A stretch of DNA of 64,000 bases from a virus (lineage: Duplodnaviria > Caudoviricetes), in the IMG/VR virus record IMGVR_UViG_3300014205_000174; one strand, written 5' to 3'. A program made the translations under genes and the position numbers. Below are positions 13,869 to 64,000 of the stretch, in pieces. Position 1 is the stretch's first letter. Each line of letters opens with the position of its first letter. The notes below the pieces were generated by a model. The model ran no database searches and was not told the DNA's origin. It worked only from the letters and a program-made list of their open reading frames with translations.

Positions 13869-14737
13869 TTTTGCCGCAGCAAAAGGTGCAGCGAAGTGCG
13901 TAGCAACATGCGCAACTGGTTTCAATTCAATACACAGCACGAATAAATATGGCACGCATTTTGCTGTCATACACTTTGATTCTCCATTTTTCACCTTATG
14001 AATTTCAAAAGCAACACACCGAGGGGCCACCCAGGGTAATCTTTTTGATTACTTTTTTACAAATCAACTACATACACTATATTTTATTACCAATATAACT
14101 AAAAGACATTCCCGGAATGGCTCTTTTTTCGCTCAAATTCTGTTTGATTAATTCTTTGCTCAGCATTTTGCCGCAGCAAAATTTACAGCAAGTGTGCAAT
14201 CAAATAGTTCACCAACCTCATTTTTTACCACAATCACACATTTATGTCGACCAGAAAGAAGGAATACTACATGAAGTTCAATGTAAAGGACTTCATGACC
14301 GACCAAAAGCTCCAGGAGTGCGGCCCAGCGGCCAATGGAGTCTACATTCACATACTTTGCGTGCTCTTTAATTCTGAAGAAAGGGGCAGATATTTATTCA
14401 AAACGGACGAAATAAAGCAATTTGCAGACATTTTGCCGCAGCAAAATGCGCAGCAAATAAATCAGCAAACGGAACAGCAAATAAAAAACATTTGCTGTGT
14501 TTTTGCCGGACGACTTGTTAAACATTTGCCGTTTTCAGAAAGAGAGGTTGAGTCTGGTTTAGTGGAGCTTATATTAAATAATGTATTATACTTTGAAGGC
14601 TTTTATCTATGTCAAAAAAGGATGATTCATGACGCAAGTGTAAGTAAATCAAGGAGTAACGCTGGCCGTAAAGGTGCAATGGTCACAAACAGCAGAAAAA
14701 ACGGGGCAAATCCGGGTGTAATTTTGCCGCAGCAAAA
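13869..14737. repeat. palindromic iterons, putative replication origin
   Basis: TTTTGCCGCAGCAAAA at 13869, 14166, 14431 and 14722 (last two inside the initiator gene), with CAGCAAA sub-repeats. Confidence 0.75.
13949..13965 (+). promoter_or_regulatory. sigma54-type promoter upstream of the replication genes
   Basis: ATGGCACGCATTTTGCT. Confidence 0.7.
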
Positions 14738-34228: not shown

Positions 34229-35428
34229 ATGTTGAAAGCATACAAATACCGCATATACCCTGACTGGAATCAGCGCAGCCTGATTAACCAGACGATGGGT
34301 TGTTGCCGATTAGTGTATAATTTGGCGCTGGAGACTAAGATACGTGCGTACAAGGAGCATGGGGTGAGTTTATCTGGCTTTGACCTTATCAACCAGTTTT
34401 CGGAAATGAAGAAGGACTACGACTGGATGAATATACCGTATAGTCACAGCATACAGTCGTCTATCCGCAACGTAGAGCGTGCATACAAGAACTTTTTTAA
34501 CGGAGCGGGGTATCCAAAATACAAAAAGAAAACCAGCCGACAGAGCTATGCCTGCCCTGACGGGAAAAGGCATATTGACTTCGATAAAAGTCTTCTAACA
34601 ATCCCCAAAATACCCGGCATTGCAATAAAGCTTGATAAGCGTGCTATAATGGGAGATATAAAGACCGTTACGGTTGCTAAAACACCAACCGACAAATACT
34701 ACGTCAGCATCCTGGTCGATACAAAGAAGGCGCTGCCGGAGAAGAAAACCATAGACCCGGACAAAACGGTAGGTATAGACCTTGGCCTTACGCACTTCAT
34801 CATACTGGATAACGGAGATAAGTTCGACAACCCGCGCTTTCTGCGAGAGCATCTTGATAGGTTGAAATACCTGCAAAGGAAAGCGTCAAGAAAACAAAAA
34901 GGCAGTAAGAACCGGAAGAAAGCAAATAAGCTGGTTGCTGCCCAACACGAGAAAATAGGCAACAAGCGTAATGATTATCTGCAAAAACTCAGTACTAAAT
35001 TAGTTGGCGATAACCAAGCTACTACATTCTGTATTGAGAACCTTGCAGTTGCAAACATGGTCAAGAACCATAAACTGGCCCTAAGCATAAGTGATGCAAG
35101 CTGGTCTGAGTTTATCCGCATGCTGAAGTATAAATCAGAGTGGGCGGGTAAGAACGTGATAGAAATAGGCCGGTTTGAGAAAAGCACGAAAACATGTTTC
35201 TGCTGTAAGCAGGTAAACGAGACGGTAGACCTCGCTGACCGGATATGGACATGCCAAGGCTGCAATACTACCCACGATAGGGACATAAATGCGGCAAAGA
35301 ATATAAAGGAAATGGGGCTGAGTGAAGCAGGGCGGGGTACGTCCAAAAAGTCTGTGGAGCCACGAAGATTACCTCGGGCGCGGAAGCAGGAAGTCAGTAA
35401 TTACAAAGGCATCTACCTTAAAGTATGA
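34229..35428 (+). CDS. tnpB: RNA-guided endonuclease TnpB (IS200/IS605 family), no adjacent TnpA
   Basis: MLKAYKYRIYP HTH; RuvC GIDLG, IENL, DRDINAA; CxxC...CxxC zinc ribbon. Confidence 0.92.
   Translation: MLKAYKYRIYPDWNQRSLINQTMGCCRLVYNLALETKIRAYKEHGVSLSGFDLINQFSEMKKDYDWMNIPYSHSIQSSIRNVERAYKNFFNGAGYPKYKKKTSRQSYACPDGKRHIDFDKSLLTIPKIPGIAIKLDKRAIMGDIKTVTVAKTPTDKYYVSILVDTKKALPEKKTIDPDKTVGIDLGLTHFIILDNGDKFDNPRFLREHLDRLKYLQRKASRKQKGSKNRKKANKLVAAQHEKIGNKRNDYLQKLSTKLVGDNQATTFCIENLAVANMVKNHKLALSISDASWSEFIRMLKYKSEWAGKNVIEIGRFEKSTKTCFCCKQVNETVDLADRIWTCQGCNTTHDRDINAAKNIKEMGLSEAGRGTSKKSVEPRRLPRARKQEVSNYKGIYLKV
35300..35415 (+). ncRNA. putative omegaRNA overlapping the tnpB 3' end; boundaries approximate
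   Basis: GGGCGGGGTACGTCC...CTGTGGAG...GAAGCAGGAAG scaffold-like motifs. Confidence 0.55.
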
Positions 35429-51781: not shown

Positions 51782-54700
51782 ATGGGCGTAACAAAGGCCA
51801 CTAAAAATAAACCGACCAGTAAAAAGCCTTCTGCCGCGAAGGCCGGTGTTGTATTGCCTGTACCGGCAACGCCAGCTCAATTGCGCCGTCGCTGGAATAA
51901 AAAAACTAGCCAGGTGGAAAAGCTGGCAAATAATATCCAAAGCCTGCGGTATAATCTCACTACTGATATGAAGAGTGATGACCAGAAGGTGTTTCTGACG
52001 GCTCTTTGTGTAAAGTGCATGGAGCTTACTGGTGAGCGTGTCGGCAATGACGAAAGCGCTGCTAATGGGCATAGGGGTATTACTGGATTGCTTAAATCCC
52101 AGGTAAAGGTAGAAGGTAATAAGGTTTCATTCCGGTATACCGGTAAGTCCGGGGTTAACCAGGATAAATCCGTAACGGATGAAAAACTCGCTGATGGCAT
52201 ACGTCGTGCGAAGGAAATATCCAAAGCGAAGTATCTTTTTTGTACAGATGACGGGTTTAAGATAAAGAATGACCGCGTCAACAGGTATCTGGCTGACTTT
52301 GAGATTACGGCAAAGGACTTGAGGGGCTTTTCTGCCAACCGCTGGCTGATACAGAAGTTAGTGGCCAATGATATCGCTGACGAGGAGAAGGACAGAAAAA
52401 AAGACTTCAATGCATTTGCAAAGGTTGTTGCTGCGAAAGTGGGCCACGGTACCGGCATGCTGAAAAACCAATACCTCATACCGGGGTTGGAAAAGGCGTA
52501 TGTAGAGGAAGGCAAAATAATAGACATCAAGGATATTGCCGGATATAAAAAAGGTGGTGGCGTTGAAAAGATGGAAAAGGGTGGTGTTGTGGCTAAAAAA
52601 GAATCCACTAAAAAACCAAGTCCCAGTGAACCTGCGGGAAAGACAATAAAATATTCCGAGTTTAAAGAAGATATCCAAACGTTTATATTTCAGTTCCTAG
52701 AGGATAGCGGGGCTCCGGATAAGATTCTCGATAACCTATACCGCGCAAGGTTTGTGGTTAAGCCGTATCCTATAAAAAATATTTCTCCGGAAGTAAATGA
52801 GGCGTCCCTGGATAAAGACCGGGGTGTACAACATGCGGCAAAGTTCAAAAAAGACAAGTACCAGCCGGTAATATTTTTCAACAACAAACTGATTGATGGC
52901 TTCCACAGGGCCTATTCTGAAAAACAAAAGGGTGCATCGGTTCTGTATGGTATCGAGCTGTCTGATGTTTTGCATGAAAAGAAGGCGGAGCTGAAGGCCG
53001 GCGGCCAGGTATCCAAGCCCGACCCATTTAACGAATGGTTTGCCGGCAGTAAAGTTGTCGATAGCAAGGGCCAGCCACTTATTGTTTATCATGGCACCGA
53101 TGCTGAAAATATTACAACATTCAATATTGATTTAGTTCGCGATAAATTTGGTTTCTGGTTTTCTGACGATAAGGAGTTCTCGGAAATGTTTGGCACTACA
53201 GCCATACCGGTATACCTGTGCATTAAAAACCCGCATGTAATAAGCAAAGAAAAATGGGACGATATCCGACGTGCGCATGCAAAAGATGCAGTGTGGTTTG
53301 CATCATGGCGTGACCAGTTAATATCCAAAGGTAAAGATGCGCTGATAATTGAAAGCAGCGATACGACCTTTGCTGGCACGAAAATACGTAATCCAGAAAT
53401 TTATGCGGTATTCCATCCAACGCAAATAAAGCTTGCTGACGGCTCCAATACCACATTTGACGGCAACAACCCAGACATTCGATTTGAGAAGGGCGGCCAT
53501 ATATATCGCAGTGTTGGCATGGAAGGTTACCTGGTGGGTAAAAGCAGGTGTCCATATATCGGCAAAGAAAAAGAAATTGATGCTTACGACACGGATATCC
53601 GTTGCTTCGTTTCCGAAACCAACGATACCTACCGGTTTATTTATGTTGTAAACAAAAAGAATGTTTCCGTTCTTCATATTCAAAAGGAAGGTGCTGACTG
53701 GGTAATCCGCAATGCATTTACCTTAGAGCATCACCGCAGACATGGGTATGGCCGGAGTCTTTACCTTGAGGCGCAGAAACATTTGCGCAGAGTTGTATTT
53801 TCGTCCAATTTGAGCCAGGAAGGCAAGGCATTTAAAGAAAATGTTACTCTAGAAATGCATATTGGTAATAATACGGAAATCGGTAGGATTGACGATGAAA
53901 CAGATACCCAGTTTCAGATAAAAGGAACGTGGTATGCAAAATGGATAATAAAGCCAGCGGCGGTCGCTGAAGATAATGAAGGTATACTTGTTCCGGATAA
54001 GATAAAGCCGACGATGATTATATCTGCATTTTCAAATGAGATGGATTGGGATAAGGTAGAGCGGTATGCTGATATTATGAAGGAAAGTGGTATGGAGCAT
54101 GGTTTCCCTGCTATATCTGGGTATCCTATTATTATTGATGAAAACGAAATTGGAGACCAGTTTCTTACCGGTGAGGAAGTGTCTGAACATCATGTTGGTC
54201 AGTTAGCGTGGAAGGTAACCAACGGCCATCATCGTTCTTTGGGGGCCATAAAGGCAGCTCTGCCATGGATTGACGTTGAGCTTGATTATAGTACGGTAAC
54301 TAACATGGAGCGCCATAAGCGCACAAACGGCAAGTACTACGAATCTGGCGGCATTACCGAAGATGATGAACCGAAGTCGACATTAGACCAGCTAAAAGAA
54401 GATGTTTCCGCTTGCAGGAACTTTGACATTTTCAGGGGCAGAATTGCCCTGCGCGAACCAGATGAGGTTAACGAGATAATGACTGTCCTTGGTCTTGAAA
54501 AAGCAACTACCAGGGAAATTGGTGATATTAATCTGAAAAAGCTGAAGGACTTTTATACTCAGGAAAAGCGCATAGTAAATGAGCGTCGTAAGATAAGGGG
54601 CAATGAGGCGGCAGCTATCCGCACTGAAAAAAATGTTGAGAATATCTTTGACCTTGCTAAAATATTAGGTGACGACATGGATAAGGCTGTACTGGATTAC

Positions 54701-56251
54701 GAAGAAAAGAAAGCCGCTATCAAATACCCGGTACAATTAATTACCGTGGAGCCATCTATTTTAGATGTGCTCAATGGCCTTTCGGATAAAGGATGCAGGG
54801 CGCTGATAGTTGGTGGCGCTGTCCGTGACGCTATTCTGGGCATCACCCCGAAAGATATAGACATAGAGGTTTATAACATAACCTACGCAGACCTGAGCGA
54901 ATACTTATCGCAGTACGGGAGAGTTAACCTTGTTGGTAAGAACTTTGGGGTTATTAAGTTTAATCCGGCAGCAGGTGGAATGGAATACGACTTCTCCGTT
55001 CCAAGAAGGGAAAACAAGATAGGTGTAGGCCACAAAGAATTTGAAGTGACCTTTGATACCACCATGACCATAAAGGATGCCGCAATGCGCAGGGACTTTA
55101 CGTTTAACTCCCTTGCGTATGACCCGGTATCCAATACGGTGTATGATTACTTTAATGGCCTGATGGATATCCGGCTCAAAGTAATAAGGCACACGTCTGA
55201 AAAGTTTACTGAGGACGCGCTGAGAATACTCAGGGCCATGCAGTTCCAAGCCAGATTTGATTTCACCATCGCTGAGGATACCAATACCTTAATGCGGGAA
55301 ATGCTTACTACCTCTGATGAGTTTGCATCCTTGCCAAAGGAGCGTGTTTTCGAAGAGTGGTACAAGTGGGCCTCAAAGGGCGTCCGCCACGACCTTATAT
55401 TCTCGTTCATGCGGGATTGCGGCCTTATCGACTGCTACCCGGTATTAAAGGCGCTGGCAGAAACGCCGCAGGACGCTGTGTATCACCCGGAGGGGAATGT
55501 GGAGGTGCACACTACCTTATGTCTGACTTATATGGACTCTATCTTGTCCCGGATGCCGGATATCCCGGCTGACGAGAAAGTAGTGCTGGTAATGTCCACG
55601 CTGCTTCATGATGTCGGTAAGCCTGCAACTACAGAGGAGCAGCTAAAGAATGGCAGAATGACGATTACAAGCAATGGCCATGAGGCATTGGGCGGTAAGA
55701 TGTGTCATGATTTTTTACCTTCGCTTGGGTTCCATAAAGATTTGGTAGACCCTATAGCTAATATTGTAGCTAATCATTTGGCTGGCGTGAATATTACCAT
55801 GATACCGCATGAGAGTGGCAGGGTAAAGGCAGTAAAGAAGCTAAGTAAGCGATTGTACCCGGCAACTATCCAGCAATTGCTGCATGTGATGGATGCAGAC
55901 AGTAATGGGCGTGGCTGGGAAGAATACAAAGAACCTACCGGTGCAAAGGAGCTGACGACCATAGCCGCAGACATAAACGTGACGGACAGGCCCTATGAAT
56001 TTATACTTCTGGGGCGTCACCTTATAGAAGCAGGGCTAAAGCCGTCTCCTGCATTCGGGGAGATTTTACGTAAAGCAAACGAGGCCCAGTTAAACGGCGA
56101 ATTTAATGATATTACCGGTGGCAGGCAGTGGCTGAAGGATAATTTGGATAGCTTTGTCAATGGCGGCATTATTAGTGCACCAGTTGATTTGTTTGCCGAC
56201 TCGCCTGGTGCACCAGTTGTAAATAGTGCAGTGCCGGACTTATTTCAATAA
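51782..56251 (+). CDS. polyvalent protein: topoisomerase IB / ParB-like / ART-like / GNAT / ParB-like / CCA-adding enzyme with HD domain
   Basis: TopoIB R86, K122, R181, H222, Y231; IDGFHR; PLIVYHGT...GFWFS...E.YAVF.P.QIK; HRRHGYG; VTNGHHR; VGGAVRD..DIDIE, RRDFT.N, EDALRILR, HPEG.V..H, LLHDVGK. Confidence 0.85.
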   Translation: MGVTKATKNKPTSKKPSAAKAGVVLPVPATPAQLRRRWNKKTSQVEKLANNIQSLRYNLTTDMKSDDQKVFLTALCVKCMELTGERVGNDESAANGHRGITGLLKSQVKVEGNKVSFRYTGKSGVNQDKSVTDEKLADGIRRAKEISKAKYLFCTDDGFKIKNDRVNRYLADFEITAKDLRGFSANRWLIQKLVANDIADEEKDRKKDFNAFAKVVAAKVGHGTGMLKNQYLIPGLEKAYVEEGKIIDIKDIAGYKKGGGVEKMEKGGVVAKKESTKKPSPSEPAGKTIKYSEFKEDIQTFIFQFLEDSGAPDKILDNLYRARFVVKPYPIKNISPEVNEASLDKDRGVQHAAKFKKDKYQPVIFFNNKLIDGFHRAYSEKQKGASVLYGIELSDVLHEKKAELKAGGQVSKPDPFNEWFAGSKVVDSKGQPLIVYHGTDAENITTFNIDLVRDKFGFWFSDDKEFSEMFGTTAIPVYLCIKNPHVISKEKWDDIRRAHAKDAVWFASWRDQLISKGKDALIIESSDTTFAGTKIRNPEIYAVFHPTQIKLADGSNTTFDGNNPDIRFEKGGHIYRSVGMEGYLVGKSRCPYIGKEKEIDAYDTDIRCFVSETNDTYRFIYVVNKKNVSVLHIQKEGADWVIRNAFTLEHHRRHGYGRSLYLEAQKHLRRVVFSSNLSQEGKAFKENVTLEMHIGNNTEIGRIDDETDTQFQIKGTWYAKWIIKPAAVAEDNEGILVPDKIKPTMIISAFSNEMDWDKVERYADIMKESGMEHGFPAISGYPIIIDENEIGDQFLTGEEVSEHHVGQLAWKVTNGHHRSLGAIKAALPWIDVELDYSTVTNMERHKRTNGKYYESGGITEDDEPKSTLDQLKEDVSACRNFDIFRGRIALREPDEVNEIMTVLGLEKATTREIGDINLKKLKDFYTQEKRIVNERRKIRGNEAAAIRTEKNVENIFDLAKILGDDMDKAVLDYEEKKAAIKYPVQLITVEPSILDVLNGLSDKGCRALIVGGAVRDAILGITPKDIDIEVYNITYADLSEYLSQYGRVNLVGKNFGVIKFNPAAGGMEYDFSVPRRENKIGVGHKEFEVTFDTTMTIKDAAMRRDFTFNSLAYDPVSNTVYDYFNGLMDIRLKVIRHTSEKFTEDALRILRAMQFQARFDFTIAEDTNTLMREMLTTSDEFASLPKERVFEEWYKWASKGVRHDLIFSFMRDCGLIDCYPVLKALAETPQDAVYHPEGNVEVHTTLCLTYMDSILSRMPDIPADEKVVLVMSTLLHDVGKPATTEEQLKNGRMTITSNGHEALGGKMCHDFLPSLGFHKDLVDPIANIVANHLAGVNITMIPHESGRVKAVKKLSKRLYPATIQQLLHVMDADSNGRGWEEYKEPTGAKELTTIAADINVTDRPYEFILLGRHLIEAGLKPSPAFGEILRKANEAQLNGEFNDITGGRQWLKDNLDSFVNGGIISAPVDLFADSPGAPVVNSAVPDLFQ

Positions 56252-56271: not shown

Positions 56272-58773
56272 ATGTCAGTAAAAACTTTACCAAAACCAAA
56301 TAGGGGTACTGGGTACCTGGCTGGCAAGCAGAACGGCAAGACTGTTATACATACAGATGGCGACCTTGGGGGCGTACTCGTTGGTGCGCGGCACAGCGAT
56401 GGCGGCATACCTGCTGTCAACGAGAGCACCAATAAGCCGCTGGAGGTGGAAAAGGGTGAGGTGAGCATTACGTCTAAGGCCGTGACCAATACTGAAGTAT
56501 ATAATTTTGATGGGCAAGAAATGACCGCTAAGGAAGTGCTTTCGAAAATAAATAGTGACGCCGGCGGGGTTAAGTTTAAAAAGGGCGGTACGGTTGAGCG
56601 TACCTATAGCCTGAATGGTCAGCAAATGACCGATAAGCAGATTGAGCAAAAACTGCATGGGAATAAAATTGAAGACAAAAGGGACGGGAATAAAATTTCC
56701 TACTCCGGTGGCGAAATTATAATTACCCGACCCGCTGTTATGTCTAAGGAGACCCATAATTTCTGCGGTAGTCAGCTTACGAACTTTCAAATCCTATCTA
56801 AGATTAATGTGGATAGTGGCGGCATAGCCTTTGCGGATGACAATGCAGACGTATCAGTAAAGCCTAATGACCTGGAATATGAATTTGGTGGGAAGGTCAT
56901 GAAGGGATATGAGATAGTTGAGCAATATGCATGCGGATGTAAAATGGAAGATGGTGGTGTGGTGAATGATTATCCAACTGTAAAGTTATCAACCATCAAG
57001 AAGCTGCAATGGTATGTGCGTCCTGACGGCAAGACAGAGTTACAGGCGGAAATTAATGGGGAGCATAAAAAAGCCGTATTTGATGATGCCGATAATAAAA
57101 TAGGCTATTATGGTTTATGTAATACTGCGGACAATGCACTTAAGTTACTTGAAAAGTATTTTAAGATAAAAATAAAACGCGATAAGTATCCTGGGTACTT
57201 TGATTCTGGTGGTGAAATAGCAGACACCGACTATGAAATAATTCCCGCAGAGAATAGCGGGCGTGGCGTGACAGAAAAAGTTCGTATTACTGATGATAAA
57301 GGCAGGGTGGCCGAATATTCTATTTTCGGCGGCGATATACCTTATGCCATACAGTGTGCGCGGCAATCATTAAAGTGGCAGCAGGAAATTGACGATATAG
57401 TTGGCCCTGAAGGGGATTTATCTGAATATGCACAGTCTATTTATGACAATGCGCTGACCAGGTATAAAAAAGCGGATGATAGAAAGAAAAAGGAACTATT
57501 GCGTAAGCTCAGGTTTAATATATCCATGATTAGGCCCGTTCTTAATTCAGTACAGGCTGGCAGTATTGAAAACATAGAATTTGTCCGCGCCGGTGAAAAA
57601 TTCCTCAAAGACCACGCCCCTGATTTCATGAGACATGGTGGTGTCGCAGAAGGCGGCAGGCAGTCAAACTTTGATTTCCTCAGTGAAAAAATATCCTCTG
57701 GTGATTTAATCATTGACCGTAATGGCATAGTGAGAACATACGCATGGCATAGCGGTGATGGCAGGCTCGTCGTTGAATCCGATAATATACCAAGCCGCCA
57801 TGGGCCAGTTACTATGTACAAAATAAAAGTAGACGGTGTTGAAAAAGAAACTACCGATGATTACGCCATGGCCCTGAATCATACGCGGGAATATTTCTTA
57901 AAGCATCAGGCTGGCTCTCACATGGAAGAAGGGGGCGTTATAGAAAGCCTTACTCCTCAGCAGCAATATGACATAGGGAATTACCTGCCAGTTAGAATAG
58001 GAGGCATAAATAATGGGTGTGCCTGGGCTGACGTATTTAATGACGAGGGCCTGCTATCTTCGGAGCCGAAGTCGCTGGATTACTATTATCAGATTGCCAT
58101 TAAAATAAAACCCGGAGCGGCATACCTTGAAAGGGAGGGGTTCTGGGATGATTTCGCAGACCGCATGGAAGAGTTAGGGCGGCCGTTGTCGTATGAGCAA
58201 GGCGGTAGGCTCCAGGGTCGGGAAAATTGCACTTACGAGCAACTGGTTGCAAAATATCCAATGCGTGACGGCTATAGCATCGGCAATCTCCAGCTCGATA
58301 ATGCTGCAACGGGTAAGACTACACCCTATTGCGTTGTAAATAAAAAAACCGGTGTATTAAATAAGCATGGGCGTGATGAAATGGAAGTTGTAGCATATTA
58401 CCAGCAGATAGGGCAAAATACACTGCAACTATGCGAAAATCCATATGCTGCACGTAGCCAGGAGAAAGCGTTGGATAAGGACGTTATTGAAGATGTGTCC
58501 ATAGAAATGGCTGATGTTAGTCAGGATAGTATGGAAGATAATATAGCAGAATGCATAAAAAACCAGAATGCTCTTTACAAAAAAGTCAAGGCATCGAACT
58601 GGGACAGGCTTGCGAAAGCTACTTTTTATAGCATGAAACTTACTGAAGCAAAGGCTAATTTCAGTACGTATCAAAATATAGAAGGGGAATTCATGTCGGA
58701 ACTAATGAATATGTGCGATTGGTTGATGAACAAGTGGCAGAATGCGCTTGACGAGGTGCGGGTGCAAAAGTAG
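56272..58773 (+). CDS. large multidomain protein with repeated xxGG linkers
   Basis: GGVLVGARHSDGGI...EVEKGE domain, partly duplicated; seven [FYM]xxGG motifs. Confidence 0.65.
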   Translation: MSVKTLPKPNRGTGYLAGKQNGKTVIHTDGDLGGVLVGARHSDGGIPAVNESTNKPLEVEKGEVSITSKAVTNTEVYNFDGQEMTAKEVLSKINSDAGGVKFKKGGTVERTYSLNGQQMTDKQIEQKLHGNKIEDKRDGNKISYSGGEIIITRPAVMSKETHNFCGSQLTNFQILSKINVDSGGIAFADDNADVSVKPNDLEYEFGGKVMKGYEIVEQYACGCKMEDGGVVNDYPTVKLSTIKKLQWYVRPDGKTELQAEINGEHKKAVFDDADNKIGYYGLCNTADNALKLLEKYFKIKIKRDKYPGYFDSGGEIADTDYEIIPAENSGRGVTEKVRITDDKGRVAEYSIFGGDIPYAIQCARQSLKWQQEIDDIVGPEGDLSEYAQSIYDNALTRYKKADDRKKKELLRKLRFNISMIRPVLNSVQAGSIENIEFVRAGEKFLKDHAPDFMRHGGVAEGGRQSNFDFLSEKISSGDLIIDRNGIVRTYAWHSGDGRLVVESDNIPSRHGPVTMYKIKVDGVEKETTDDYAMALNHTREYFLKHQAGSHMEEGGVIESLTPQQQYDIGNYLPVRIGGINNGCAWADVFNDEGLLSSEPKSLDYYYQIAIKIKPGAAYLEREGFWDDFADRMEELGRPLSYEQGGRLQGRENCTYEQLVAKYPMRDGYSIGNLQLDNAATGKTTPYCVVNKKTGVLNKHGRDEMEVVAYYQQIGQNTLQLCENPYAARSQEKALDKDVIEDVSIEMADVSQDSMEDNIAECIKNQNALYKKVKASNWDRLAKATFYSMKLTEAKANFSTYQNIEGEFMSELMNMCDWLMNKWQNALDEVRVQK

Positions 58774-58775
58774 GT

Positions 58776-59216
58776 TTATTGTTCACTGCATGGCGGGTGG
58801 CCATATCGGGAAAAGTACCGGAGCGGGCGCATCATTTTGCCCTTAATCCAAAATCCCCAGTTCCGTAATGGTCGGCCAGTGATTAATATTGTCCAGCATC
58901 CACCTTTTTCTACATCTACATAATGTTTATGTAGTGCGGGCCGGTACCGGATACAGCCACGAGTAAGTTGCTCCTTCACAATTACACCGTCTTTTGATTC
59001 GGATACATCAGTATAGCTGCCACTTAAAACCAATGTAACAAACCACCAGGCATGGTCGTGAAGATACCTTTTATCGTCACTCCTTAAAAAGTGATGTATG
59101 CGAATGGAGAAGCCGAATAATATCAGCACCCAGCGGTAGGCATATGGGCAGGATTTTTCGCCTAACGGCTCATTCCACCTGAGCTGAATGTTTTTTGTTT
59201 TCCAGAAAGGTTTCAT
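58776..59216 (-). CDS. cupin-like phage protein
   Basis: IHHFLRSDD...HDHAW.F...VLSG.Y...H.V. Confidence 0.65.
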   Translation of the reverse strand: MKPFWKTKNIQLRWNEPLGEKSCPYAYRWVLILFGFSIRIHHFLRSDDKRYLHDHAWWFVTLVLSGSYTDVSESKDGVIVKEQLTRGCIRYRPALHKHYVDVEKGGCWTILITGRPLRNWGFWIKGKMMRPLRYFSRYGHPPCSEQ

Positions 59217-59746
59217 CGTTTATATATTCTAAGCATTGCAGTAGGTACAGTGCGGTCTTTTTCCATAAAGGTATTGTCTGGCAGCATATGGAGGGAGTAT
59301 TCTTTGTCAGATAACCACTCCCTGAATTTCACCTGGATAGGTTCGTTATTTGTCAGCCAATACGGTGATGTGAGCGTCACCAATAATCCTTTCTTCTTCA
59401 GGTGGCTGTACATTTTTTCTATATGCAGCACATCGGTATTGCCTTTAAAGGGAGGACATGCAATAATTCTGTCGAACTTGATATCTGTTTTGAATTCAAG
59501 AAAGTCGGCGTGGTAGATAGTTCTTGATGGGTTGGTCATTGCCCCTAAAGAAAGATAGCGACATTTTTCTTTGTTCAATTCCACCATATGATACTGCATG
59601 CCGGTGAAAGAATAGCACCTATCTATAGTGTCAATTATTTTACCCATGCCTGCTGATGGTTCAAGTAAGGTCATGTTGTCCGACAAGGCAGCCATGTTTA
59701 TTAAGCCCTTGCAAACGCTATGGGGCGTTTCTCTTATTGTGCTCAT
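59213..59746 (-). CDS. small N6-adenine methyltransferase
   Basis: ETP, LLEPSAGMG, DFL, IIACPPF (variant of NPPF). Confidence 0.7.
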   Translation of the reverse strand: MSTIRETPHSVCKGLINMAALSDNMTLLEPSAGMGKIIDTIDRCYSFTGMQYHMVELNKEKCRYLSLGAMTNPSRTIYHADFLEFKTDIKFDRIIACPPFKGNTDVLHIEKMYSHLKKKGLLVTLTSPYWLTNNEPIQVKFREWLSDKEYSLHMLPDNTFMEKDRTVPTAMLRIYKR

Positions 59747-59766
59747 TGAATGTAAGATTTGAAATT

Positions 59767-59811
59767 AAAAAGTGGCAATGAAATAGTAAACTAAACTATC
59801 ACATTGCCACT
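59767..59811 (-). terminator. intrinsic terminator after the tRNA-like gene
   Basis: AGTGGCAATG/CATTGCCACT stem followed by T-tract on the minus strand. Confidence 0.75.
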
Positions 59812-59821
59812 CACATCATCG

Positions 59822-59983
59822 TCGCGCTTCATGGGCTCGAACCACGGGCCTCCACCATTGAAACTCAAAAGCTCCGGCATTATTTACACAAAGGCCAGCT
59901 TGCAATCCGGCTCCCATGCTTTAGGGCGTTTACTATTAAGTTTGCGCATCAGGGTGACGCTCTACCAACTGAGCTAAAGCGCG
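59822..59983 (-). tRNA. tRNA gene with an 89-nt insertion in the anticodon loop; isotype unresolved; no encoded CCA
   Basis: Acceptor CGCGCTT/AAGCGCG+A; D arm GCTC-AGTTGGTA-GAGC; anticodon stem TCACC/GGTGG; T arm CGTGG-TTCGAGC-CCATG; loop 96 nt instead of 7. Confidence 0.85.
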
Positions 59984-60020
59984 ATTTATTTAAAGAACTT
60001 GTTTGATTTGAATAGTGTAT

Positions 60021-60037
60021 TGCAAAGTGCGTGCCAA
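60021..60037 (-). promoter_or_regulatory. sigma54-type promoter of the tRNA-like gene
   Basis: Minus-strand TTGGCACGCACTTTGCA. Confidence 0.7.
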
Positions 60038-60064
60038 ACTTTCTACCTGTCGCACAAAGGTTTG

Positions 60065-60760
60065 TTAATACCCATCTGCATCGAAAATCGGAAAGAATAA
60101 TCTATTATCTTCTGTCCAAAAACCCTCAATTACTCTCTTGTATAAAGTTGTTACTTCAATCTCTTTGGGTGGTGGTATTTTAGCAGATGGATATATTTCC
60201 TGAAAATCACACTCCCACATGCAAGCAGCAATGTTTTTTTTATTGTCAAGTAAATCAACAAATGAATAAGATTGCCAAGAAGCCCTATTTACTCCATTAA
60301 CTTTCTTAGTTGGTTTGCTATGGAATATGACTATGCAGTTATAGTGTCCACCATATGACCCTATCCAAACAGGGCGAGAAGAAATCTTCGGTAATTTCAG
60401 TTTTACATGATTCATTTTACAATAGCTTTAAGTGCGTCATTAATGTTATGCGGCCACCCGCTTGTAGCTAATAGTATAGATGTCATGTATGGGTACGTCG
60501 ATAAACCCGCCATTGGTTTCCGGGTCTGTATCTTCGTCATTTATGTTTTCCTGCCGGTGGTGGTCTACGTTGAACTGGTACCCCTCCGCCTGAAATGAAT
60601 CTTCGCCCAGGTTGTTCATTACACATTGGATAACTCCACCGTTGATATCACCATGGCTAAAATGGAAGTAATAAGCATCTCCGTACTTTTCCAGGATACG
60701 CTGTATGGTAGCTTGATGTGTTTCTGCTACAGTATCGGTATTTGATTGTATCGTTGTCAT
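60065..60760 (-). other. two hypothetical genes (60446-60760, 60065-60415)
   Basis: ATG 60760 lies just downstream of the promoter at 60786-60802. Confidence 0.55.
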
Positions 60761-60785
60761 AAAATAAACGTTGATACTTAGGTAA

Positions 60786-60802
60786 TGCAATTGGCGTGCC
60801 AA
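60786..60802 (-). promoter_or_regulatory. sigma54-type promoter
   Basis: Minus-strand TTGGCACGCCAATTGCA. Confidence 0.7.
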
Positions 60803-60844
60803 ACTTTGGCAATCCCGTAATATTATTGCCAAACTTTTAAAACA

Positions 60845-61028
60845 CAAAAGCCCCCCGGAATCCGTTGGGCTTTTGCTTTGATTTAGAACTTGTACGCTTG
60901 CGGCCATTTCCTGCCATTTCCGCCCGAGCTTGTCCAGTATGCTCGGTTCGTTTCTTGAAAGCTGCGGTATGTGGCCACCTTCCCGTCGCTTTCCTTTTAA
61001 TCTTTCTCTTAAATCAGTACTACAAAAT
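60845..61028 (-). ncRNA. putative structured ncRNA of unknown class
   Basis: Promoter TTGGCATGAAATTTGT-TATATTTG; nested stems TGATTTA/TAAATCA, GTGGCCA/TGGCCGC, CCGC/GCGG, CCGAGC/GCTCGG; terminal hairpin CAAAAGCCC/GGGCTTTTG. Confidence 0.5.
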
Positions 61029-61128
61029 ATAAATCAAATATAACAAATTTCATGCCAAAATATATTATTGTTATAATCCGATTTGTCTCGGTTCCACTTT
61101 TTTAATAAATTTACAGGAAAGATTCAAA

Positions 61129-61671
61129 ATGACACCAGATAAAGTAAAGAAAAGAATTTCCCCATACCTTGAAACCATTACAGAAGCATGTATATTTTAT
61201 CCTTTATTGGATACTAAAGGATATGGCAGCATTCAATATAGGGTGCCAGGGAAGAAAGTGCATTACAGAGCGCATAGGGTCTCTTTTGAATTAGCAAATA
61301 ACTGCGAATTACTGCAAGCAGATGTAATATTACACTCCTGCGATAATCCAGCATGCATTAACCCGCGCCATCTTACTAAGGGTACTCACGAAGATAATCA
61401 GCGGGATAAGATGGCTAAGGGCAGGCAGGCCAAGGGTAAAACCAATGGCAGATACGTGCATGGTTATTATTCAAAGTTTGAGCCTGTGGCAAAACCTGTT
61501 CCGGATTTTCAGACTTTATGTAACAGAAGTATTTCTCTTGAAACTGCAAAAGCGATTAAAAGCAGAATTAAAGTCGGCGGCTGCAAGTTAATAGACCTAT
61601 CTAAGGAGTTCGGCATACCGTACCAAACTATAAAAGATATTAGTGCAGGAAGGGCATATAAAAACGTATAG
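61129..61671 (+). CDS. HNH endonuclease with C-terminal HTH
   Basis: GYG...AHRVS...ILHSCDNPACINPRHL..GT..DN..D...KGR. Confidence 0.88.
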   Translation: MTPDKVKKRISPYLETITEACIFYPLLDTKGYGSIQYRVPGKKVHYRAHRVSFELANNCELLQADVILHSCDNPACINPRHLTKGTHEDNQRDKMAKGRQAKGKTNGRYVHGYYSKFEPVAKPVPDFQTLCNRSISLETAKAIKSRIKVGGCKLIDLSKEFGIPYQTIKDISAGRAYKNV

Positions 61672-61690
61672 CTGTCCAAAATTTTGATTT

Positions 61691-61714
61691 TTGGCACGAG
61701 TTTTGCTATATTTG
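61691..61714 (+). promoter_or_regulatory. overlapping sigma54-type and Bacteroidota primary-sigma promoter of the tmRNA
   Basis: TTGGCACGAGTTTTGC immediately followed by TATATTTG. Confidence 0.7.
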
Positions 61715-62126
61715 TGTTGCACGTTTGTTGAGGCTTTTTGAGAATCTGTAAGACCCGAGTTCGACTCTCGGCGACTCCTCAAAATTGCGGTTAGTAATAT
61801 ATGTTGGTGTACAACAATTTATATGAAAGGGTGTATCCATTATTGCAGCTCCTGGAATTCAAACGGTTGAGCGCGAAAAAAATACACGGCGGCAGCCCGC
61901 AATGATATTATTAGTCATGAGTAAGTACATGACTCGCCACCCTATCAACACGGGGTCGACTGGCTATCGATTGCAGAGGATGGAAAGTGGAGAATGTGTA
62001 ACATTGAACGGCAACACAATTGCTTTTACTCCGGTTTACTCTATGAGAAAAACTGCGTAGTACGAAATTAAGCTCCAGCGAAAACGGGGCCAGAAGGAGC
62101 AGGCGTAAGTCTGCTCCTTTGCTTTT
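61715..62126 (+). ncRNA. ssrA: circularly permuted (two-piece) tmRNA
   Basis: Acceptor piece first (T arm CCGAG-TTCGACT-CTCGG, CGACTCC 61772-61778); coding piece starts GGGGTCG at 61952 (G3.U70); P2 TTGCAGA/TCTGTAA; tag frame 62010-62060. Confidence 0.85.
62094..62126 (+). terminator. intrinsic terminator ending the tmRNA
   Basis: AAGGAGCAGGC-GTAA-GTCTGCTCCTT with T-rich tail. Confidence 0.75.
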
Positions 62127-62132
62127 GCGAAT

Positions 62133-62149
62133 TTGGCCCGATATTTGCG
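62133..62149 (+). promoter_or_regulatory. sigma54-type promoter
   Basis: TTGGCCCGATATTTGCG upstream of the small ORF ending at 62351. Confidence 0.55.
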
Positions 62150-62347
62150 AATAAATAAAATACAAAATACAAATAGCACAATCATGACAGCAGAAGATAT
62201 ATCTACAAGCATTGAATCCATCCTGAACGGCGCTTCCAAAGAGTTAGGCCCTATGGATTATAAGCGTCTCTTGCGCGACATCCGTTCTGAAATTGATATT
62301 AGGATTGATTGTTTGGAATTGGATGAGCAGAATGCCCAGGCTGAGGG

Positions 62348-62765
62348 CTAAGCGGTCATTTTTATTTCCATCGTAATGGCTAATTTAGCTTTTTGCCTTT
62401 CTGTTTTAGGGCTAATTACTTTATTTGGCTGGCAAAATATGCACGAACATGGCTTTCCATGAGACCGGAATGCGTGGAGGTTACTGGTATCGGATTCCTT
62501 CAGACCATAATTTTTAAGACGCTTTTTGTACTTAAGCATCTTCTTTTCATGTCGTAGGGCTTTGTTTGCGTTTTTCATTACCATCGTTTTTGATATCCAG
62601 CATGATAGATGCCGCTGTTAAAGATACACCAATAGTCATGGCTGTATTCCACCTGTATGCATCCGGATTGGTTGCCTGTGATATCGCATAAACAAACGCG
62701 CCAAGAGCTATAATGGATAAGCACTGCGACAATTCACTTTTTTTACCACCCTCAATCGTGTACAT
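62348..62765 (-). other. two small genes (62547-62765 membrane; 62348-62584 basic with CSC..C)
   Basis: Overlapping minus-strand ORFs. Confidence 0.5.
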
Positions 62766-62885
62766 AGTAATCTGGCTGCTTAATAAAGAGAAATATTTGT
62801 AAATATATGAAATCTACTTTAAAATAGGTCGGCAATAGTTTTTTTTATCGAATTAAACAACTATTTTTGTAAATATTTTAATTTT

Positions 62886-63365
62886 ATGCTGTTTACTAAT
62901 AGCCAGATAATCAAGAGTGGAAAGGATTATATGATAGGCGCTGCTAATACTAAAAGCGAGGTATCGTATAACAACTATATACTTGCGGTGGAAAATCGCA
63001 TACTAACGCTTGTGGTGCATTCTGTGAAAGAGAATATGTCACATGGCGCTACTAAAGAAAAGGCTATTTCGGACATTGTTACGTTTATTTATTCCAAAAT
63101 ATCCATACGTAATAAAACATACCCTGATACAGAAGAGGGGATTGTGGATGAAATCATGGAGTCTGAGGAATTTCGGAACTGGAGTTATGATATCTGGTAT
63201 AAGTTCAAAAATACACATCTGGGCGTAGTTGGTAAGGATACGCCAATATCGGCACACGGGAAATTGCATCCCGATATTGATGCCGATACTGTGGAGCTGG
63301 TAGAAAAGGAAGATTCATTGCAATTGGTTATTGACGGGCTTGCAGGATTAAATTTTACTGACTAA
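62886..63365 (+). CDS. hypothetical protein
   Basis: 159-aa ORF after a TATTTTTG promoter element. Confidence 0.55.
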   Translation: MLFTNSQIIKSGKDYMIGAANTKSEVSYNNYILAVENRILTLVVHSVKENMSHGATKEKAISDIVTFIYSKISIRNKTYPDTEEGIVDEIMESEEFRNWSYDIWYKFKNTHLGVVGKDTPISAHGKLHPDIDADTVELVEKEDSLQLVIDGLAGLNFTD

Positions 63366-63380
63366 ATAATTAGTTTTCTC

Positions 63381-64000
63381 ATGGCGGATACAACCCTTAA
63401 GGAATTAACGGAGATTGTAGAAAATGATGGTAAAAGATTAGAAAAAAATCTTTCCATTGTAAGTGATGTTATTGTAAAGGAGGAGACTATCTATGACGGC
63501 ACCGATGCCGGAGAAGATGAATTTAAAGTGATACCCACGCCGAATTTTAGCGATGCAAAATCTGTAGGTACCGTGCTCCCTATCAACATGGTGAGCGAAA
63601 CGGTAAATAATCTTTCCCAGTTAGCCAACCAGTTTGACCTGGTAGACCATGTAAAGGAAAAACTAAATTACGCAAGCAGGATTGAGGTGATACGTATATT
63701 CTCCAGTGAGCAGGTGGACGCCATTGTGTTGGCTATCCGCCAGTTTGAGAAAGGGAATGCCTTTATCCTTGGTGATTCTGCCGGTATAGGTAAGGGCCGC
63801 GTTGTTGCGGGCATGCTTCGTTACGCATACCAGAACAAGCATATCCCTATATTCGTTACACATAAGCCATTCCTGTTTTCGGATATCTATCGCGACATTA
63901 AAAAAATAGGTGGTTTTGGCGCTGAGAAAGCTGGCAAAATCATTGAGCCGGTACCATTTATTTTAAATTCAGGCAATAAAGAAGAATGCATCATCAAGGA
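63381..64000 (+). CDS. strawberry-notch family SF2 helicase, 5' part (runs off the window)
   Basis: Open from ATG 63381: SSEQVDAIVLAI...AFILGDSAGIGKGRVVAG...LFSDIYRDI; missing from the ORF track because no stop is in the window. Confidence 0.8.
   Translation, partial: MADTTLKELTEIVENDGKRLEKNLSIVSDVIVKEETIYDGTDAGEDEFKVIPTPNFSDAKSVGTVLPINMVSETVNNLSQLANQFDLVDHVKEKLNYASRIEVIRIFSSEQVDAIVLAIRQFEKGNAFILGDSAGIGKGRVVAGMLRYAYQNKHIPIFVTHKPFLFSDIYRDIKKIGGFGAEKAGKIIEPVPFILNSGNKEECIIK

Follow-up and report, generated by a model that had tools for sequence, protein, structure and literature searches.

A candidate lineage-specific small non-coding RNA gene in an accessory island of a large uncultured phage

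The locus described here lies near one end of a 64,000-nt stretch of DNA (the window) that is recorded as part of a tailed phage. The window's proteins are also present on a 211,455-bp contig and are identical on a 49-kb Logan contig (SRR6484325). Its content is phage-like, with an HNH endonuclease, a 1489-aa polyvalent protein and many small ORFs, and the closest match in an isolate is to a Bacteroides phage, through a helicase at 26% identity. The 1489-aa polyvalent protein (51782-56251, plus strand) has a C-terminal tRNA nucleotidyltransferase domain (PHROG 2244, E = 1.5e-69), and a TnpB/OrfB_IS605-type gene is found at 34229-35428 (plus strand). At Rfam's gathering threshold and with default ARAGORN settings, no RNA genes were found in the 64-kb window. 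The candidate stretch sits within an island of RNA genes, with an intron-bearing tRNA-Ile on one side and a permuted tmRNA on the other. The genes and signals around it are as follows.

59821-59983, minus strand: tRNA-Ile(GAU) in which an 89-nt insert follows position 38-39; ARAGORN reports it with the intron option only
60787-60801, minus strand: canonical sigma-54-type promoter TGGCACGCCAATTGC of the 104-aa gene, which separates that gene from the candidate
61129-61671, plus strand: free-standing HNH homing endonuclease gene (PHROG phrog_59, E = 1.5e-22; weak Pfam zf-His_Me_endon match)
61718-62126, plus strand: circularly permuted two-piece tmRNA gene (RF04321 tmRNA_permuted)

Following the minus strand 3' of the candidate, the promoter at 60801-60787 leads into the 104-aa ORF (start 60760) and a 116-aa ORF, after which come a further sigma-54 promoter and tRNA-Ile(GAU). 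The sigma-54-type promoter at 60036-60022 is this tRNA's own, a hairpin lies 3' of the gene, and a group I intron would not fit into the 89-nt insert. On the other side, upstream of the candidate and divergent from it, are the HNH gene, which lies between the candidate RNA and the tmRNA, and the circularly permuted tmRNA itself. The tmRNA neighbour is real, but permuted. Against RF04321 it scored 32.4 bits (E = 7.2e-5 in a 551-nt search), short of the gathering score of 47, and it was missed by ARAGORN. The acceptor piece comes first, followed by a ~170-nt spacer and then by a coding piece starting GGGGTCG; as read by eye, the acceptor stem (GGGGUCG/CGACUCC) has G3:U70, the discriminator is U and CCA is not encoded. 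Both tmRNAs and CCA-adding enzymes are known cargo of large phages (PMC7162821). Inside the tmRNA spacer there is also a terminator-like hairpin with a T-run on the minus strand (61885-61901), which would halt antisense transcripts from the minus-strand 72-aa and 76-aa genes (62348-62765).

The candidate stretch begins with a promoter-like element, TTGGCATGAAATTTGT followed directly by TATATTTG, which by direct reading is of the sigma-54 -24/-12 type. Its counterpart on the tmRNA side is TTGGCACGAGTTTTGC+TATATTTG (61691-61714, plus strand). The two promoters are 85% identical across 26 nt and form a 26-nt inverted repeat (85% complementary; tmRNA copy at 61689-61714) that brackets the HNH gene. 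The original prediction, which was made from the letters of the DNA alone, had described the stretch as an unannotated structured RNA with the same promoter architecture as the tmRNA. The likeness between the two promoters stands, but the promoter proved to be phage-wide and not specific to RNA genes. A scan of the window for TGGCAY-N5-TTGY returned 11 sites compared with 0.94 expected, and TGGCATGAAATTTGT+TATATTTG of the candidate is a member of this family. Eight of the 11 are canonical (TGGCACG-N4-TTGC), and these stand at gene boundaries and are directed toward the next gene.

Canonical sigma-54-type sites (motif scan): 6174+, 12947-, 13950+, 29810+, 32215+, 60022-, 60787-, 61692+
Variant sigma-54-type sites (motif scan): 16216-, 28742+, 61043-

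The same promoter type was seen in relatives of the phage, at 68-95 and 623-645 of locus L002 and near 14575 and near 14005 of locus L014. Since the motif is found at the boundaries of many genes and recurs in relatives, we consider it a general phage promoter rather than an RNA-specific architecture; it appears to drive protein genes too, here and in the relatives. In the parts examined, neither an AAA+ activator nor a shared upstream enhancer motif was seen. The promoter of the 104-aa gene is 90% conserved over 30 nt with L014 13980-14009. Upstream of it and overlapping it is a 13-nt inverted repeat, AAACTTTGGCAAT / ATTGCCAAACTTT, with an 11-nt spacer (60801-60837, minus strand); the repeat copies the -24 TTTGGCA element and could be an operator or a decoy site. 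The candidate's own promoter is a weaker variant (TGGCAT/TTGT), in which the -12 element carries GT, not GC. Both deviations are known in functional sigma-54 promoters, for example pspA. From the usual spacing between -12 and +1, the transcription start is predicted at ~61030 +/- 3.

Between this promoter and a terminal hairpin, the following elements were identified or predicted.

61035-61058, minus strand: promoter-like element of the sigma-54 -24/-12 type
60838-61030, minus strand: predicted transcript of ~185-190 nt, bounded by promoter and terminator (14-nt leader, four-way-junction core, terminator)
60879-61016, minus strand: predicted closing helix P1, in which 61016-61007 (UGAUUUAAGA) pairs with 60887-60879 (UCUAAAUCA), 9 bp with one bulge
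60957-60993, minus strand: predicted hairpin P2, with GAAAGC/GCUUUC (6 bp), a 2x2 internal loop, CGG/CCG (3 bp) and a 15-nt loop
60924-60946, minus strand: predicted hairpin P3, with CCGAGC/GCUCGG (6 bp) and the 11-nt loop AUACUGGACAA
60900-60923, minus strand: predicted hairpin P4, with GCGG/CCGC (4 bp) and a 16-nt loop with tandem GGAAAUGGC repeats
60838-60875, minus strand: intrinsic terminator, an A-tract/GC hairpin (arms 60875-60861 and 60859-60845) followed by UGUGUUUU

All of the strings quoted in the original prediction were found where it had placed them, both when the sequence was read directly and in scans. The stretch is GC-richer than its surroundings, as had been noticed: the core has 47% GC compared with 23% and 33% in the intergenic flanks, and it is 66% purine and 15% T. 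The terminal hairpin (60845-60875) likewise has the described form, with 15-nt arms that are 87% complementary and with the U-tract TGTGTTTT after it. We estimate its strength at about -19 kcal/mol, as the difference between folds with and without the hairpin. The plus-strand mirror image of this terminator was flagged too. On the minus strand, the interval between the terminator and the divergent HNH gene holds the candidate stretch only. Terminators placed right before the next sigma-54 promoter close real transcription units elsewhere in this phage and in L002.

The four nested stems of the original prediction were not borne out. Instead, four different slices were folded, and their MFE, centroid and MEA structures, along with the 15 best suboptimal folds, all gave a four-way junction, in which P1 is predicted to enclose P2, P3 and P4 side by side. 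P1 has an alternative 5' partner at 61038-61021, and P4 adjoins P3 without a linker. The tandem motif GGAAATGGC was confirmed (60921-60913 and 60911-60903) and is found nowhere else in the window. The loop of P2 holds the palindrome GUGGCCAC, which also occurs once in the window, with ~0.7 8-nt palindromes estimated to be expected by chance in a stretch of such length. No antiterminator that competes with the terminator was seen among the suboptimal folds, in which P1 and the terminator coexist.

The full-length fold has an energy of -55.4 kcal/mol (z = -3.33). For the core z = -2.54, with 3/200 shuffles equally stable, compared with z = -1.51 for its opposite strand. Set against all 144-nt windows, with GC content regressed out, the core has an ordinary folding energy. 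The genuine RNA neighbours fold poorly (z = -0.35 for tRNA-Ile at 59821-59983, z = -0.69 for the tmRNA at 61718-62093), so that the core exceeds both in stability. Because a real tRNA and a real tmRNA score this low, folding energies and z-scores are a poor discriminator in this genome, can neither confirm nor dismiss RNA genes, and decide little here.

We next consider whether the stretch is coding. Two of its three frames are open, including the frame that runs from 61033 into the 104-aa ORF (ORF 60446). The original prediction had recorded that this frame is open and had named translation of the stretch as an N-terminal extension of the ORF as what would refute an RNA gene. This extension was rejected, as the homologues begin at Met 60760, behind their own promoter. 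Specifically, the alignment of the homologue P0002 begins with its residue 3, opposite the Met at 60760; P0002 lacks an N-terminal extension, and its contig carries a sigma-54 promoter 40 nt before the same ATGACAAC start. Relatives of the open upstream translation were absent from 1.84 billion representative proteins, and neither open frame matched Pfam or PHROG. A terminator and a promoter inside an ORF would also be odd. As T makes up only 15% of the core, open frames are fairly likely by chance (an estimated ~8% per frame over the core). A pseudogene of the 148-aa gene that precedes the L002 homologue was considered too, and there was no similarity. Taken by its sequence, then, the candidate stretch holds no credible ORF.

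For known RNA families, the whole window was compared with Rfam 15 at the gathering score, and slices of 501 nt and 161 nt, short enough for the filters to be lax, were compared with it at E ≤ 10. The candidate matched none of 6S, 6S-Flavo, RNase P, T-box, tRNA, Y RNA, group I intron or any other family; the best match was the rnk leader, a terminator look-alike on the wrong strand. A tRNA-like or tmRNA-like gene was also rejected, given that ARAGORN found nothing on the candidate strand with introns allowed and thresholds lowered to 80%, and therefore no acceptor stem, T-arm or tag frame. The same relaxed run recovered the intron-bearing tRNA-Ile.

Homologues were sought in several ways. Blastn against phage and plasmid records gave no homologue, and the RNA alone at E ≤ 10 gave chance matches of 22-28 nt only. 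Four exact or degenerate RNA patterns run on IMG/VR, and one run on JGI metagenomes, likewise returned chance matches only (checked with a single-sequence covariance model), and a tmRNA anchor pattern had no match on IMG/VR. A covariance-model search of the related loci that we fetched (L002-L024, leaving out L003, a shorter piece of the contig represented by L005) found no homologue. There were no paralogues of the candidate in the window, and it shares no sequence with tRNA-Ile, the tmRNA or the tRNA intron. The only other copy is in locus L001, which has no population signal because it is 100% identical over the whole overlap (58129-64000). The hunt for homologues proposed in the original prediction thus ended without covariation support, as neither the collections nor the related loci yielded one.

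The neighbouring proteins were also used as anchors. The 104-aa protein has two relatives, in which the preceding gene shows no trace of the candidate and the contigs end just upstream of that gene. None of the eight relatives of the 116-aa protein is syntenic, and among the several relatives of the 833-aa protein one locus, L014, is. Proteins P0014 and P0016-P0019 align with a quarter of the 833-aa protein, at 53-58% identity. Protein-anchored scans of viral, metagenome and genome collections yielded L015 and L016 only, both without the RNA. L014, the only syntenic relative fetched, shares a glycosyltransferase, a TopoIB/ART polyvalent protein, the relative of the 833-aa protein, a 160-aa gene and a helicase (74% identical). 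The island itself (58776-62830, compared with L014 11932-14580) is flanked by polyvalent proteins on one side and by a 159-aa gene and a strawberry-notch-like helicase on the other, and its contents are completely different in the two loci, with one promoter shared. By this comparison the island is hypervariable cargo. The candidate RNA is absent from L014, which says little given how variable the island is.

Pairing partners were sought closer by. Complementarity to the tmRNA and tRNA precursors, as for antisense or guide pairing, was at chance level. A long-duplex run against the tmRNA, the tRNA and the 5' regions of the HNH and 104-aa genes, itself uninformative, gave nothing beyond shuffled controls. 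The 5' part of the RNA has 16/20 similarity to the HNH 5' UTR, which we estimate to be chance level for AT-rich sequence. A CsrA-type GGA sponge was rejected, as the GGA count equals the estimated expectation.

Overall, the stretch quite possibly represents an independently transcribed small non-coding RNA gene that is specific to this phage lineage, although we hold this reading only tentatively. It is the most economical one because the stretch combines a resident-type promoter, a terminator with no other target, a GC-enriched foldable core, no credible ORF and RNA-gene neighbours. The promoter and terminator signals, and the missing ORF and family match, are direct results; transcription, the fold, action in trans and the type of partner are what we infer from them. 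The following scenario would fit. In a hypervariable accessory island of a ~211-kb uncultured phage with Bacteroidota-style promoters, host RNA polymerase would start at ~61030, at a weak variant of the phage-wide sigma-54-type promoter, transcribe ~185 nt and stop at the strong intrinsic terminator (~60845-60838). The RNA would fold into a four-way junction of P1 and three hairpins with large purine-rich loops, and would then act in trans. We favour a role as a platform or decoy that binds a protein or an RNA end, rather than as an antisense regulator, because the exposed segments are A/G-rich and no complementarity to the neighbours was found. Counting against an RNA gene are the degenerate promoter variant, the ordinary energy against the GC-adjusted background and the lack of a homologue. 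In addition, a decayed coding strand would have this appearance too, purine-rich and with two of three frames open.

That last point leads to the main alternative, which we consider somewhat unlikely: the stretch may be non-functional, a leftover spacer or decayed small gene in a cargo island with fast turnover. The hairpin would then shield the sigma-54 promoter that serves the 104-aa gene against read-through, and the promoter motif of the stretch would be defunct or accidental, such as a duplicate left by the arrival of the HNH cassette. Consistent with this, the content of the island is wholly replaced in L014, no homologue turned up in the collections and loci searched, the promoter is of the weakest type (with about one of the 11 motif sites expected by chance), the strand is purine-rich like local coding strands with its two open frames, and the folding energy is unremarkable for the window. 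However, a 26-nt match of 85% to the promoter of a real RNA is unlikely to be fortuitous, and no residual similarity to a protein was seen. An insulating terminator also needs a transcript from upstream, and no other is available on the minus strand. Finally, the GC contrast and the recurrent four-helix fold would be left to explain.

It is improbable that the stretch is instead a cis-acting leader or attenuator, in which the hairpin would end some transcripts from the promoter at 61043 and let others continue into the 104-aa and 116-aa genes, providing a second, regulated input to this operon. The stretch does lie directly upstream of the 104-aa gene in the same orientation, with the terminator 85 nt before the ATG. 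But a full canonical sigma-54 promoter stands between terminator and ATG, in an arrangement that is conserved in homologues; the suboptimal folds offer no competing antiterminator; and no riboswitch or leader family was matched.

Also quite improbable is a small, very basic protein. It would be either a 26-aa peptide that begins with the ATG at 60916 or, given a non-canonical start in the same frame, a product as long as 58 aa. The 58-codon open frame (P0025) is K/R-rich, the sense strand is purine-rich and an A-rich stretch precedes the frame; Bacteroidota use such a stretch in place of a Shine-Dalgarno sequence. Against this, the frame has no ATG, GTG or TTG before codon 33, it contains the terminator hairpin, and the RNA probably ends at or before the frame's stop codon. 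It has no Pfam or PHROG match, and the low T content that makes open frames likely by chance applies to it as well.

A more ambitious version of the RNA-gene reading seems to us a long shot. Here, the candidate would belong to a new class of phage structured RNA that works with a translation-RNA module (the intron-bearing tRNA-Ile, the permuted CCA-less tmRNA and the CCA-adding domain) or that acts as an RNA polymerase decoy toward sigma-54-type promoters. Such an RNA could, for example, be a platform that captures the 3' ends or elbows of tRNA and tmRNA, or a decoy that shifts host RNA polymerase.

The specific identities offered in the original prediction, a 6S-like RNA polymerase decoy or a tRNA-elbow clamp with interdigitated T-loops, are very improbable. 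As an unannotated RNA, the stretch does read as a non-coding promoter-to-terminator unit by the logic of its signals, but these functional guesses were unsupported. The length is near that of 6S, and a regulatory RNA in a phage that reprograms promoters is a shared idea; however, 6S RNA is built of a closing stem, a central bubble and a terminal stem, whereas the candidate is predicted to be multibranched, without a rod and central bubble, and matched neither RF00013 nor 6S-Flavo (RF01685) even at E ≤ 10. For the elbow clamp, CAAGAAA and GCGGAAA do lie on either side of the CCGAGC/GCUCGG hairpin (P3), as had been noted, so that two GAAA-containing single-stranded segments flank a hairpin as they do in the J11/12-J12/13 module of RNase P and the distal platform of T-box stem I. 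The genomic company of tRNA, tmRNA and a CCA-adding enzyme domain would suit such a module, and four UGG motifs might pair with NCCA 3' ends, with a count near chance expectation. The apparent double T-loop resemblance comes down to those two heptamers, and the motif resemblances generally span 4-7 nt of low information.

RNase P RNA itself was rejected, with no match to the bacterial A/B, archaeal or type-T models and, as the original prediction had already reported, no P4 helix. Bacterial type A RNase P RNA is ~330-400 nt long, and the ~150-nt core is less than half of that. A T-box leader was rejected on the lack of a match to RF00230 at E ≤ 10, the lack of a competing antiterminator and the independent promoter before the downstream gene; the candidate also lacks the T-box 14-mer and a specifier loop.

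The slimmest chance is given to the inverted repeats acting as DNA, as an upstream activating sequence for an enhancer-binding protein at the sigma-54 promoter (60801-60787) 80-230 bp downstream: sigma-54 promoters classically require enhancers 80-150 bp upstream, and the dyad symmetries CCGAGC-N11-GCTCGG and GTGGCCAC lie at roughly the right distance, but the motifs of the stretch are missing in front of the other ten promoters, as is any other 8-mer in common. Most of those ten abut the preceding coding sequence. This reading would also leave both the promoter copy and the terminator unexplained.

If the candidate is taken as a small RNA gene, it can be compared with known systems. Phage small RNAs with their own promoter and intrinsic terminator include lambda OOP, prophage DicF and VpdS of a Vibrio phage, and Bacteroidota have Hfq-independent small RNAs, such as GibS. 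Like these, the candidate would be a stand-alone promoter-to-terminator unit of 100-200 nt in an accessory region, without a conserved ORF. Those RNAs pair through antisense seeds and have mapped targets, whereas no target complementarity was found for the candidate, and its exposed segments are predicted to be purine-rich. With the neighbouring tmRNA (RF04321-like) and tRNA-Ile(GAU) it shares the promoter family, the island and a hairpin terminator for each gene, but it has no acceptor stem, T-arm, tag frame or sequence in common with them. As a prediction from a single sequence, it is an unverified addition to the broad class of phage small RNAs.

If the stretch is indeed transcribed, the product would be a third unusual RNA beside the intron-bearing tRNA and the permuted tmRNA, in a phage that seems to rely on promoters of the sigma-54 type, which is a rare lifestyle. 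An accessory RNA with such a structure could be relevant to the takeover of translation or transcription by large phages. For now, the candidate is useful as a marked target for metatranscriptomics and does not amount to a discovery, and we consider the sigma-54 promoter programme, the permuted tmRNA and the intron-bearing tRNA more remarkable than the candidate itself. An echo of the intron-bearing tRNA was seen in L014, where the island contains a tRNA-like gene of ~140 nt (~14250-14105, minus strand) with long internal inserts, the acceptor AGTAGTA/TACTACT and the T-arm GCAGG-TTCGACC-CCTGC.
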